Source of the DNA: an uncultured Thalassospiraceae bacterium | GTDB lineage: Bacteria; Pseudomonadota; Alphaproteobacteria; Rhodospirillales; 2-02-FULL-58-16 | Direction of reading: 5' to 3' | Length of the DNA stretch: 61,859 bases | Assembly: GCA_964632795.1 (NCBI GenBank) | Contig: CAZWEZ010000006.1 | Coordinates: forward strand, 1 to 61,859 | Shown here: piece after piece, positions 33,536-47,774 of the stretch | Layout of the letters: each line of letters starts with the position of its first letter | Position numbering within the stretch: position 1 is the stretch's first letter | Translations under genes and position numbers: made by a program | The notes under the pieces: model-generated | What the model saw: only the letters and a program-made list of their open reading frames with translations | The model's database searches: none | What the model was told of the DNA's origin: nothing

Positions 33536-33645
33536 GACTTGGGGCACCGATGTCCGCTGAATGCTTGAAAGCAGACCTCAGGTGCGAGTTTCCGTCACTT
33601 ACGGGTATAGCCAACAGCGGTCATTGAGCTGGCTCAACATTTTTC

Positions 33646-33674
33646 TTGAGATTGTGGATCGATAGGTATATAAT
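33646..33674 (+). promoter_or_regulatory. Near-consensus sigma70 promoter TTGAGA-17-TATAAT
   Basis: -35 at 33646-33651, 17-bp spacer, -10 at 33669-33674. Confidence 0.8.
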
Positions 33675-33680
33675 ACACAG

Positions 33681-33821
33681 AAACCTACGTATGTGACACC
33701 AATTGTTCCCGGCCATGGAATCTTTTATAAAATGGGATGTCAGATCCATTTAATTGGATCTCAGAAGTCTCCAGACTTCAAAATTTTACAGCCCCGCCAT
33801 TTTCATTGGCGGGGCTTTTTT
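33681..33821 (+). ncRNA. Candidate ~140-nt small RNA
   Basis: Bounded by the promoter and terminator; hairpins at 33742-33761 and 33764-33779; no RBS-bearing ORF inside. The 5' end is estimated from the -10 element. Confidence 0.55.
33790..33821 (+). terminator. Intrinsic terminator
   Basis: AGCCCCGCCA-TTTTCAT-TGGCGGGGCT followed by a T run. Confidence 0.85.
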
Positions 33822-33904
33822 GGGGGCGAGGAGAGATCGTCCCACCCCTCCTTGCCTGATGCCGGGAAAACCGCAAACCATTCCAACGACAGCCTGGGTC
33901 ACGA

Positions 33905-33972
33905 GCGGCTGTCACCGCCCCACCAGTGCCAGTTCCGTTCACCATCCTGAAGCTGACGAAACCCATCGGAAA
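33905..33972. repeat. 68-bp direct repeat, copy 1
   Basis: Ungapped 59/68 identity to 34691-34758. Confidence 0.85.
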
Positions 33973-34258
33973 CGAACGCAAGCGTGTTCATGTGTTTCTG
34001 CACAGTGCCAAAGAGCGTTTCTGTTCACCACAGCTACAAAAGCATACCGTCCATGGCCAGATTGGCAGCCAAAATGGTAATAAAAAACATGACGCTCAAA
34101 TTCGCTCGCTGTGAGGCGCTAGCTTGCTTGCGGCGATGTGATGGCTGGTGGTGTTGAGATTGCTCTGATGAGCGGATATGAGTGTTTGAGAATTAGCTAT
34201 TGAAAAAAGCTGGCTAGTGTGAAAGATTGCCGCAGCTTTTTGTTAATGGAGGTTCAAT

Positions 34259-34636
34259 ATGACACTCAAGCTGGTTCGCAGAAAGAAGGTGAAGGCTGCT
34301 GCTGGGCGTAAGAAGAAAAGTGAGATGGAAAAGTTTGCTGATGCGATCGATGTTCAGATACGCATAGCAAACGGCGAGACGGTTAAGCAGGGGCGTGGCA
34401 CGGCCAGGAGTTGGATGGAAGATGGTTCAGCCTTTGGCGTCAAGAAGGTTCTGAATGCCAGGGTAGGCAAGACCTCGCTTTATCCCAAGTCAGCATACAC
34501 GGTAGATATGAAGCAGCCAAAGCCGCCAATGAACGAATTGAGGGAACTGAAGGAGGCGGTGCTGGTTGGCAAACTCAACAACAGGATTTATGCCATCTTG
34601 CGTAAGCAAAAGAAGAGGGGCGCTGCTAAGAAGTAG
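34259..34636 (+). CDS. Basic (Lys/Arg-rich) small protein, DUF6641-like
   Basis: GGAGG RBS. LKLV..., AIDVQIRIANGE...RSW, and ELKEAVLVGKLN resemble, from memory, the DUF6641 pattern (EQI.LA..R.W...LK.AV.AGELD). Confidence 0.7.
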   Translation: MTLKLVRRKKVKAAAGRKKKSEMEKFADAIDVQIRIANGETVKQGRGTARSWMEDGSAFGVKKVLNARVGKTSLYPKSAYTVDMKQPKPPMNELRELKEAVLVGKLNNRIYAILRKQKKRGAAKK

Positions 34637-34690
34637 GGCTATTGGCGTCCCGCGTGAGCAACTTCAGCTCAAGGTCAAACAAGGTCAACT

Positions 34691-34758
34691 GCGGCTGTCA
34701 CCGCCCCATCACCGCCAGGTCTGCTCACCACCCTGAAGCTGACGAAACCCGTGGGAAA
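34691..34758. repeat. 68-bp direct repeat, copy 2
   Basis: Matches 33905-33972; conserved GCGGCTGTCACCGCCCCA and CCTGAAGCTGACGAAACCC blocks. Confidence 0.85.
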
Positions 34759-35021
34759 GCTGGCATCCAGGCTTGAACGTCGGCTTGCTGTAGGAAACCG
34801 GCCGTGCTCTGTGATAGCCTGGAACCGCCGCTGACAACCACAAGTGGGCATATTGCCGGCTAGCAAGCAGCAGCGGGGGCTCGATTGCCTGTAACCGTCG
34901 CCAGTGAACCACATGTTTTCCGTACACCCTGAACGGCAGCCGGATCAGGCTTTTTCTTGAATCCCATTCGGACCAACATGGGAAATGTACCGATCAATGG
35001 GCACCGGCCGGGGAGAATTCG

Positions 35022-35795
35022 ATGGACCGCGAGCGCGTTATTGATCTCTGCAAGGGGGATTTCGGGATAGAATCCCTCAAGTCGGTGGCGAGTTACGCTG
35101 CCCCCTTTTTTTGGGTAGCGGATGATGACAACGGCGCGCACAAGATAAACAACGGTTCGATATTTTTCGTTGACGCCTCCGAGGGCCTGTTCGCGATTAC
35201 CGCAAACCACGTCTTTGAGAAATACATTGAGGTAAAAGGGTCATCCTCGAGCATTTACTGCCAGATCGCTCGCAACTGTTTCGACCCAATCGCACGCGAG
35301 ACGATCCCTTTCGAGCCTGAAACCTGCCTGATCGATAAAGATCCCGAAGCGGACATCGCCACCTTTCGCATTTCCGAAGCCGACGTTGAAACCATTGGCG
35401 CTACTGTCCTTACAACGTGGCCGCCCATGGTTCCACAAGAAGGATTGGGCGTTGCCTTCACAGGATATCCTGGCCACGAGCGCCAATTGGTTGGACCCCA
35501 CGAAATTATTTTTACCCCTTTTCCAGCAATAACAATTGCCACCAGTGTCAGTCACCGTTTGATTTCGTGTCAGCTGGAACGCGAGTACGTCGTCGATACG
35601 CCCGGCTTCTCAAAACTGCCATCGGGTTTCGACACAGGAGGATTAAGCGGAGGTCCTCTACTGGTTAACGTCGAGAAAAGCGGAATTTTCTATTGGCGGC
35701 TTGGAGGCGTCATTACCCAGGGCAATCCTGATTTGGAAATCGTCCGCGCTTCCCGAATCGACCATCTCCGTCCTGATGGTACTTTTGCGCGGTAG
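35022..35795 (+). CDS. Trypsin-like serine protease, no signal peptide
   Basis: Catalytic triad motifs ITANHV (His), DIATF (Asp) and GGLSGGP (Ser); GGAG RBS. Confidence 0.85.
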   Translation: MDRERVIDLCKGDFGIESLKSVASYAAPFFWVADDDNGAHKINNGSIFFVDASEGLFAITANHVFEKYIEVKGSSSSIYCQIARNCFDPIARETIPFEPETCLIDKDPEADIATFRISEADVETIGATVLTTWPPMVPQEGLGVAFTGYPGHERQLVGPHEIIFTPFPAITIATSVSHRLISCQLEREYVVDTPGFSKLPSGFDTGGLSGGPLLVNVEKSGIFYWRLGGVITQGNPDLEIVRASRIDHLRPDGTFAR

Positions 35796-35842
35796 GAGTA
35801 CGGGAACCACCGGTCTTCCATGGGGCCGTAAGCGGGGGGCGT

Positions 35843-37300: not shown

Positions 37301-37708
37301 CTAGAGAAAGTCCCCCATACTCGCACCATAGTACCTTGAAGCATCCATATCTTTTCCACCGCGCCCGAACAATAAACGACGGGACGATAGGTCCACTTCG
37401 GCAACCCTGATGTTGGGATGGGTGTAATCAGTATACGTGTCCGGATCATAATAAATGGCCCGCATCACATCGATCGGGAAAACAAAAAAACGTGTAGCGT
37501 CACCACAAATCCAAACTTCGAAATTCGCGGTCAACGTGTTGGGATTGATATTGAACGAATAGACCGTTCCTCTTGACTTCGGGGACGACCGATACCTGAC
37601 GTGGACGATTGCACCTCCAACCCGCCATTTTGCTTTCGGCATAGGGATTGGTTTGTTCCCCTTGGAAATCGCTGCGAGAACCTTGGTCTTGATTTCGATG
37701 GCGTTCAT
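37301..37708 (-). CDS. Hypothetical protein inserted in the gat operon
   Basis: AT-richer ORF with a GAGG RBS; its stop TAG directly abuts the gatB ATG. Alternative start at 37729. Confidence 0.7.
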   Translation of the reverse strand: MNAIEIKTKVLAAISKGNKPIPMPKAKWRVGGAIVHVRYRSSPKSRGTVYSFNINPNTLTANFEVWICGDATRFFVFPIDVMRAIYYDPDTYTDYTHPNIRVAEVDLSSRRLLFGRGGKDMDASRYYGASMGDFL

Positions 37709-37715
37709 TGCAGCC

Positions 37716-38059
37716 TCATTTTTCCTCATCCTGAGCGGCGAGCGGAGCTCGCCTGTCGAAGGATGCGATGGCGCGTTTCGGTCCCGGTTTCGCCAAACGC
37801 TTCAGCGCCTCGAAATCGCCCCGGATCAAAGCTTCCTTTTTCGCCCGGCTCCAGCCCTTGATTCGCCGCTCCATGGCGATGGCATCGACCGGATTCTGAA
37901 ACGCCTCGTGGAAAACGAGTTCCACGGGTCGCCGCCATTTCGTGTAACCGTCGTAAACTCCAGCGTTGGTTCCGCGATACGCTTTTCCAGGCTCCCGCGG
38001 GTTGTCCCAACATAGTACCGCCCGTCCGAACAACGAAGGATGTAGACGAAGACGGTCAC
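37716..38059 (-). pseudogene. GIY-YIG nuclease (YhbQ/UPF0213-like), frameshifted
   Basis: VYILRCSDGRYYVGTT..LEKRIAE then, in another frame, NAGVYDGYTKWRRPVELVFHEAF...AIAMERRIKGWSRAKKEALI. One base is missing at ~37968 (GAA C-C AAC where GAA CAC AAC, E-H-N, is expected). Confidence 0.88.
37724..37765. repeat. Diverged REP-like unit downstream of the GIY-YIG gene
   Basis: CCTCATCCTGAGC...TGTCGAAGGATG ends match 19085-19125. Confidence 0.8.
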
Positions 38060-38090
38060 GACCTTTCCAATCGTCTCTCCTTGGCCCGGG

Positions 38091-38130
38091 CATCCTTCGA
38101 CACGCCGCTTCGCGGCTGCTCAGGATGAGG
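38091..38130. repeat. REP-like unit upstream of the GIY-YIG gene; contains the gatA stop
   Basis: 39/40 identical to 19021-19060. Confidence 0.9.
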
Positions 38131-47552: not shown

Positions 47553-47774
47553 CCGGCTCCCGCCACCGGCATCGCGTACTTCCGGTGTTGGCTATCAGCA
47601 GCGGTTCCAGGCTACCACGGACCACGACCGCTTGGGAACGACAAGCCGACATTCCAAGTCCAAGAGCTTGTCCGCATTCCTTGTGACACGTCAAGTTTGG
47701 AGGCATGCGCCGTTCCTGGCCATGGGAAGGCCCTTCTTGTCTTGTCCGGGGAGATCGCGTAACCAGTTGCGGCC

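Follow-up and report, generated by a model that had tools for sequence, protein, structure and literature searches.

A candidate small RNA gene in a low-GC mosaic of an uncultured marine Rhodospirillales lineage

Does the short intergenic stretch between an SDR gene and a 125-aa open reading frame (ORF) of this contig encode an RNA of its own and, if so, would that RNA act on the genes next to it or elsewhere in the genome? An earlier note, made from the letters of the DNA, had read the locus as a new and highly expressed small RNA (sRNA), possibly an antitoxin or a regulator of the adjacent basic-protein and protease genes. The window analyzed here is the whole stretch of 61,859 nt, a contig from a marine-sediment metagenome. 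Its GatB is at most 76–78% identical to those of Magnetovibrio, Rhodospirillaceae, and Thalassospiraceae MAGs, and the organism is therefore a member of the Rhodospirillales whose relatives in GTDB are at family level only.

As the earlier note had proposed, the locus has the anatomy of a free-standing sRNA gene, with a promoter, hairpins, and a terminator in this order. We lean, with modest confidence, towards a free-standing, independently transcribed, and probably Hfq-type sRNA that would act in trans as a base-pairing regulator; that the locus is transcribed at all appears more probable than this full reading.

A predicted promoter and terminator delimit the locus

The elements of the candidate gene are as follows.

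33640-33645, plus strand: T-rich tract, 5' of the -35 element
33646-33674, plus strand: sigma-70-type promoter, 11 of 12 positions as in the consensus
33646-33651, plus strand: -35 element TTGAGA, with a 17-nt spacer to the -10 element
33669-33674, plus strand: -10 element TATAAT
33681-33822, plus strand: predicted primary transcript, ~141 nt
33701-33714, plus strand: candidate seed, complementary to the ribosome-binding site of the protease gene
33714-33736, plus strand: most conserved core, CATGGAATCTTTTATAAAATGGG, 23 nt, AU-rich, predicted to be weakly paired
33715-33753, plus strand: contained mini-ORF of 12 codons, MESFIKWDVRSI, with no Shine-Dalgarno (SD) sequence upstream
33742-33761, plus strand: hairpin 2, 7-bp stem AGAUCCA/UGGAUCU, loop UUUAAU
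33764-33779, plus strand: hairpin 3, 6-bp stem GAAGUC/GACUUC, loop UCCA
33780-33789, plus strand: A/U-rich single-stranded linker AAAAUUUUAC, directly 5' of the terminator, Hfq-module-like
33790-33822, plus strand: intrinsic terminator, 10-bp stem (8 GC), 7-nt loop, U6 tail
33790-33816, plus strand: terminator stem AGCCCCGCCA/TGGCGGGGCT, followed by six T (33817-33822)

Each of the elements named in the earlier note (TTGAGA and TATAAT 17 nt apart, the terminator, the two internal stems, and the 12-codon ORF without an SD sequence) was found in place. When both strands of the window were scanned, the promoter was the only match to at least 11 of the 12 positions of the sigma-70 consensus (four sites reached at least 10 of 12). 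Likewise, a perfect GC-rich stem of at least 8 bp followed by a T-run was found only once on the two strands of the window, at the sRNA locus. The -10 element and the terminator are separated by ~116 nt, lie on the same strand in the correct order, and enclose two perfect hairpins. The chance that the best promoter and the best terminator would fall 100–200 nt apart, in order and on one strand, was estimated at ~1e-3; the pairing of the window's best promoter with its best terminator is not due to chance. From the spacing to the -10 element we infer that the transcript would start at A33681, and from the T-run that it would end there. High expression, as the earlier note had expected, would follow solely from the promoter consensus.

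Promoter-like similarities also occur further downstream. The segment 33627–33649 resembles 34938–34960, upstream of the protease gene, over 23 nt (78%); the similarity ends in TTTTTCTTGA and corresponds to the T-tract plus a -35-like element. TTGAGA is also found 5' of the basic gene, at 34188–34193, with a further copy at 34155–34160. The shared T-tract/-35 similarity may reflect the promoter style of the donor of this island, or chance.

Predicted RNA structure

The whole RNA folds with a z-score of -4.74, which none of 200 shuffles equaled; for the body without the terminator (33681–33789), the z-score is -1.71, and 12 of 200 shuffles equaled it. Most of the fold signal comes from the terminator. 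The GC content of the sRNA is 0.42, as compared to 0.65 for the window. The earlier description of the 5' half as single-stranded is roughly right, as only weak helices of 4–5 bp were predicted in it, and RNAalifold, when used on the variants described below, gave the same structure as the single-sequence fold. The core at 33714–33736, which contains the palindrome TTTTATAAAA, is a candidate seed or protein-binding segment. Further 3', the stem-loop junction of hairpin 3 reads GUCUCCAG and includes an anti-SD-like CUCC. The terminator loop is UUUUCAU, and is U/A-rich like the loop of hairpin 2.

Comparison with known RNA families and classes

A search of the whole window against Rfam 15 gave no match at the gathering score, and permissive scans stayed below threshold; the RNA does not belong to a known Rfam family. 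With permissive thresholds, the scores in bits (gathering score in parentheses) were 28.2 (50) for sX13, 26.5 (54) for SpF11, 24.3 (50) for the Betaproteobacteria toxic small RNA, and 19.4 (40) for ar15. These scores are largely carried by the terminator, and the models resembled are all those of terminator-bearing, trans-acting sRNAs. In the sX13 and Betaproteobacteria toxic small RNA models, GUCUCC from the hairpin-3 loop region was aligned to a C-rich/UCUCC motif.

Like Hfq-dependent, trans-acting sRNAs with a Rho-independent terminator and a class-I layout, the candidate is 100–150 nt long and has its own (here predicted) promoter and several short hairpins. A/U-rich sequence precedes its GC-rich terminator, a poly-U tail follows it, and an anti-SD motif of the CUCC(CA) type is exposed at or close to a loop. 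The sequence features sought for the Hfq type, namely a terminator, a poly-U stretch of at least about six, and a preceding A/U-rich single strand, are all present. The candidate differs from AbcR/ar15 (RF02345) of the Alphaproteobacteria, a family that is widely conserved in Rhizobiales, in that it is confined to one narrow lineage; its 19.4 bits lie below the gathering score of 40, and no sequence homology was found.

The best Rfam resemblance (28.2 bits) is to sX13 (RF02232) of Xanthomonas. This RNA of ~115 nt forms three stem-loops, the last of which is the terminator, with an apical C-rich (4C/5C) loop on each stable stem, and its C-rich loops pair with G-rich motifs in ribosome-binding sites and repress translation (PMC3771888). 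The candidate also has a C-rich motif in a loop. However, it has a single C-rich loop (CUCC, not CCCC) and a much shorter middle stem, and it lies in a gene island of a Rhodospirillales bacterium whereas sX13 is found at the polA locus of Xanthomonadaceae. Membership of the sX13 family was rejected, as three C-rich loops are required and the loops of hairpin 2 and of the terminator are U/A-rich.

The Betaproteobacteria toxic small RNA (RF02278) shares with the candidate the GUCUCC located shortly 5' of a GC-rich terminator. These RNAs are small (57–92 nt) and terminator-ended, have their own promoters, and carry the motif at their 5' end; what they do in their native hosts is not known (PMC4603805). 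The candidate differs from them in its score (24.3 bits, where the gathering score is 50) and in its ~85 nt of extra conserved 5' sequence.

The setting of the locus also invites comparison with type I toxin-antitoxin systems. Among these, the RNA antitoxins of RalA/RalR and SymR/SymE act on enzyme toxins. Like them, the candidate is a small RNA near the gene of a potentially harmful enzyme in acquired DNA, and it has complementarity to the translation-initiation region of that gene. It differs in that it does not overlap the gene in antisense, its complementarity is short and statistically marginal, and the protease that would be its partner occurs elsewhere without the RNA. A type I pair, in which the toxin is usually a small hydrophobic peptide, was rejected: no conserved small ORF was found on either strand, the nearest genes encode the 125-aa basic protein and the 257-aa protease, and the complementarity does not exceed 14 nt. 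Co-occurrence of a toxin and the RNA was likewise dismissed, as the protease at 89–92% identity in loci L001, L002, and L116 and its distant homologs in L003–L007 have no such RNA nearby. A retron, CRISPR, tRNA, or tmRNA identity was also discarded, with no reverse transcriptase, no such repeats, and no ARAGORN match.

Variants, conservation, and distribution

Five close variants, all from related marine metagenomes, were reconstructed from contigs aligned to the locus; in a k-mer index, the sequence was found in three marine metagenome studies only. The divergence of the variants is 2–10%. All variants that reach the -35 element have it unaltered, and the -10 element differs only by T33671A, giving TAAAAT. 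Only one substitution (33724 T>A, in one variant) was found among the 23 nt of the core in the five variants. The stem of hairpin 2 has a single change, A/G at 33758, which keeps the pair as U-G, and changes in its loop are tolerated; in the terminator, 33797 C>T and 33799 A>G each yield a G-U pair. In variants V1, V2, and X8, the linker at 33780–33789 stays A/U-rich, and the 10-bp stem and the U6 tail are also kept. The most diverged variant, V2, with 14 substitutions and 5 indels, has largely lost the hairpin-3 stem while keeping CUCCCA; its 5' core is nearly intact, and its upstream flank cannot be aligned.

All five helix transitions keep the pairing as G-U, and helices 1, 4, and 6 are free of disruptions; the chance of such a G-U-preserving pattern was estimated at ~0.03. 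Because the variants differ by only 2–10%, covariation was not significant, with one double change and an observed score that was reached by 78 of 500 shuffles. In the closest variant, the divergence of the sRNA is ~2%, equal to that of the flanking DNA. With no significant covariation, and with flanks as well conserved as the RNA in the closest variant, selection acting on this RNA is suggested at most.

No homolog was found outside this narrow lineage in the viral, metagenome, genome, plasmid, and phage collections searched. An exact scan with the core pattern gave no match in viral contigs or in GTDB genome contigs, and 22 matches in metagenome contigs, all of them bare 19-mers without flanking similarity. 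Further viral scans gave 2 and 10 matches, with 8 of the 10 belonging to one phage coding-gene family, and none of these matches fits the covariance model beyond hairpin 2. The 80 gatB loci examined from Rhodospirillales and other Alphaproteobacteria (GatB identity of at most 78%) held no DNA of the island by blastn and no match to RmuC, basic-protein, or protease queries by tblastn. A blastn search with "distant" settings of the island against plasmids and phages gave no match, and the covariance model R1, built from the variants, found only the locus itself in 1.1 Mb of loci plus the window.

It should be noted that the terminator was also seen in another arrangement. In run X3, a 300-nt contig carries the terminator and the next 40 nt (33784–33858) behind 158 nt of unrelated sequence. 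An insertion of 30–38 nt is present at 33857 in contigs of X3 and X8, and a further contig of X3 diverges past 33858. The body of the RNA may be swappable, or a second RNA may share the terminator.

Genomic setting

The sRNA gene lies in a 2.3-kb low-GC stretch (33540–35840, 42–58% GC, in a window of 65% GC) between the stop codon of the SDR gene (33535) and that of gatB on the minus strand (35843). The other features of this stretch are as follows.

33538-33620: dispersed repeat between the SDR stop codon and the sRNA promoter, ~10-fold depth in the source run
33897-33972 and 34683-34758: direct repeats of 76 nt, 84% identity, bracketing the basic gene
34259-34636, plus strand: orphan basic-protein gene, 125 aa, very basic
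34775-34840: second dispersed repeat, with a copy at 47589-47654 (minus strand), 77% over 66 nt, ~5-fold depth in the source run
35006-35019, plus strand: tentative target site in the protease leader, covering the SD sequence GGAG (35012-35015)
35022-35795, plus strand: trypsin-like protease gene, 257 aa, Trypsin_2 E = 0.02

Many contigs diverge at the edges of the repeat at 33538–33620. This repeat has no other copy in the window and no Rfam match, and its fold does not surpass that of shuffled sequences; one part shows 70% inverse complementarity to the repeat at 34717–34743. The two copies of the second dispersed repeat are located just after the basic-gene cassette (34775–34840) and downstream of a creatininase gene (47589–47654). 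The idea that the repeats flanking the basic gene are integron attC sites was rejected, as they fold no better than shuffles, and the flanking low-GC regions that were searched revealed no integrase.

Some 820 nt of low-GC DNA (37301–38120) lie between gatA and gatB on the minus strand. This gap contains a GIY-YIG/UPF0213-like ORF, which can be read through only with a 1-nt frameshift near 37975, as well as an orphan ORF of 142 aa (37729–37301) without a Pfam match; small acquired genes therefore flank gatB on both sides.

None of the loci that carry the protease or the basic gene elsewhere contains the sRNA. As judged from these arrangements, the sRNA gene is independent of its neighbors, each of which is found elsewhere without it, and horizontal transfer probably brought it in as a separate unit, into a mosaic of independently mobile small genes.

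Neighboring genes

Among 5.8 billion proteins, the basic protein has only 10 homologs, each of them encoded on a short metagenome contig. No Pfam, NCBIfam, PHROG, or PADLOC match was obtained for it, and its AF2 model (pLDDT 78) gave no fold match in PDB or BFVD. An RNA chaperone like FinO/ProQ was considered and rejected for lack of a family or fold match. The sole match is to a short RecA C-terminal-like motif, with the invariant residues GE.V..GRG...SW..DG; the PDB profile match to RecA (E 2e-6) is inflated by fused RecA repeats. In locus L011, the basic gene is 83% identical, lies behind a different gene without the sRNA, and keeps a conserved upstream region of ~66 nt. A contig of run X2 joins 33961 to 34774 and so is without the basic gene, with the surroundings kept, suggesting a presence/absence polymorphism. 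In locus L009, a partial duplicate of the 3' end of the basic gene (671–762, ~70% identical to 34502–34593) follows the gene and is itself followed by a strong terminator.

The protease matched LmuA (1e-8) and RT-Protease_XI (2e-3) in PADLOC. The motifs expected of a Ser-His-Asp triad are present (ITANHV, DIATF, and GLSGGP), and no signal peptide was recognized by eye. Together with 113 nt upstream, the gene forms a unit of ~0.9 kb (34907–35819 in the window, 5888–6778 in L001, and 1128–2034 in L116; 89–92% identity) that is found in three unrelated gene neighborhoods; distant homologs are solitary in other contexts. An imperfect 15-bp direct repeat bounds the unit (AACCACATGTTTTCC at 34907–34921 and AACCACCGGTCTTCC at 35805–35819), and a comparable pair is found in L116. 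The arrangement points to a small mobile cassette, and no recombinase was seen.

Alternative readings

The region is taken to be non-coding because no gene is called between the SDR gene and the 125-aa ORF in the annotation of the source contig and because both of its small ORFs are broken by indels. The RNA could instead be the mRNA of a small protein, or a dual-function RNA, for the 12-aa peptide MESFIKWDVRSI, or a 42-aa ORF on the opposite strand could be coding, as both ORFs do exist. However, the mini-ORF has no SD sequence, shows non-synonymous changes among the variants (33737 A>G and A>T, 33740 T>C, and 33724 T>A), and has its stop codon removed by a 1-nt deletion at 33752 in one of them; in another variant, loss of 1 nt at 33706 shifts the frame of the antisense ORF. 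We give scarcely any credence to a coding reading, and the RNA is not a translated leader. The element could also be a transcription attenuator or a riboswitch-like leader controlling read-through into the basic-protein gene, since it lies on the same strand, upstream of the ORF at 34259, with a promoter-then-terminator layout. Such a role is very unlikely because the terminator and the ORF are 437 nt apart, with the repeat copy 33897–33972 between them, because no antiterminator pairing with the 5' arm of the terminator was seen in the sequence or the folds, and because the copy of the basic gene in L011 lies behind a different gene, without the sRNA, and keeps a conserved upstream region of its own. 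No Rfam cis-regulatory match was found either, and the metagenome contig that skips 33962–34773 loses the basic gene while keeping its surroundings. The regulation of this gene that the earlier note had suggested did not find support in pairing, as the energy of -13.9 kcal/mol between its leader and the sRNA was matched by 42% of shuffled sRNAs.

The protease mRNA is the sole candidate target visible in the window, and a tentative one. Since RNAduplex gave unrealistically long duplexes against 90-nt leaders, windowed duplex and cofold controls were used instead. Between 33701–33714 and 35006–35019, 13 of the 14 positions pair across the SD sequence (one as G-U; the remaining position is a G/G mismatch), and the local duplex of -24.5 kcal/mol was reached by 0.5% of shuffled sRNAs and ranked third of 75 against the GC-richer leaders of the window. 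These values would suit an sRNA that is a dedicated repressor of the neighboring, cytoplasmic protease, similar to a type I antitoxin, with 33701–33714 occluding the SD sequence. So would the leaders of L001 and L116, where there is no sRNA and the pairing is much worse (-15.5 and -15.9 kcal/mol), with changes such as CCAGAG to CCGGGG raising the complementarity of the window leader relative to theirs; the same holds for a leader variant in run X2 (35013 G>A) that turns the G-U pair into A-U, and for the resemblance of the protease to defense-effector proteases (LmuA and RT-Protease_XI). However, with intramolecular structure taken into account, the gain was -10.3 kcal/mol as compared to -7.3 ± 3.3 kcal/mol for shuffled leaders, 17% of which equaled it (two leaders tested). 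Moreover, helices 1 and 2 bury part of the seed, the change 33713 C>T, present in most sRNA variants, leaves a weaker duplex of about -21.5 kcal/mol, and the two genes are 1.2 kb apart with another gene between them. In all the other contexts examined, the protease stands alone and the intergenic gaps leave no room for an sRNA, so it needs no RNA partner. We regard a dedicated repressor as distinctly unlikely, and hold out even less hope for the bolder proposal that the mobile protease and the sRNA together make up a new module of two parts, in which a strongly expressed RNA would silence the translation of a defense-type effector (with an LmuA/retron-XI-like protease domain) until this RNA is lost or titrated, as an RNA antitoxin for a putative protease toxin that would have arisen recently by mutation of the leader towards complementarity. 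Of the proposals of the earlier note, the new sRNA is thus reasonable, the pairing with the protease is marginal, and regulation of the basic gene and the antitoxin role are unsupported, the latter in view of the same protease (89–92% identity) occurring alone in two other contexts. It is possible, if on the whole unlikely, that the locus is transcribed and functionless, its promoter and terminator having been carried in with acquired low-GC DNA, for example as the leader of a lost gene, and its RNA persisting only through the youth of the lineage. The 2.3-kb low-GC patchwork of dispersed repeats and mobile orphan genes would be in line with this, as would the lack of a homolog beyond the narrow lineage, the closest-variant divergence equal to that of the flanks, the non-significant covariation, and the terminator found behind other upstream sequence (33784–33858), by which the body may be dispensable or swappable. 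Against it, the V2 core is nearly intact while its upstream flank is unalignable, all helix transitions keep pairing, the promoter hexamers are kept where covered, and the Hfq-module-like 3' end is a specific architecture and not just any terminator.

Proposed mode of action and significance

In the reading that we prefer, that of a free-standing regulatory sRNA, the housekeeping sigma factor would transcribe a non-coding RNA of ~141 nt from the near-consensus promoter, starting near 33681, and the intrinsic terminator would end it near 33822. The 3' part, made of hairpin 3, the linker AAAAUUUUAC, the GC-rich terminator, and the U6 tail, is a putative Hfq-binding module; such a layout reportedly forms the Hfq-binding module of enterobacterial sRNAs. 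The AU-rich and weakly structured 5' part, with the most conserved sequence, would supply the base pairing, and the candidate seeds are the 5' segment 33700–33736 and the CUCC-bearing loop of hairpin 3. Pairing in trans with the ribosome-binding regions of mRNAs would block the initiation of translation, and most targets would be elsewhere in the genome. Because of the Hfq-module-like 3' end, the conserved and weakly structured 5' half, and the exposed CUCC, a trans-acting repressor of translation would be the most likely role.

The locus would then be an ordinary sRNA gene of a well-known kind, of no known family, in one poorly sampled marine Rhodospirillales lineage. No long-standing question is opened by the gene, and wider interest would attach only to its RNA possibly pairing at the ribosome-binding site of a defense-like protease. 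If real, the gene would add one orphan, lineage-restricted regulatory RNA to this uncultivated marine lineage, and it would illustrate how an sRNA gene can move as one self-contained promoter-to-terminator unit, within the same low-GC patches in which mobile orphan protein genes accumulate.
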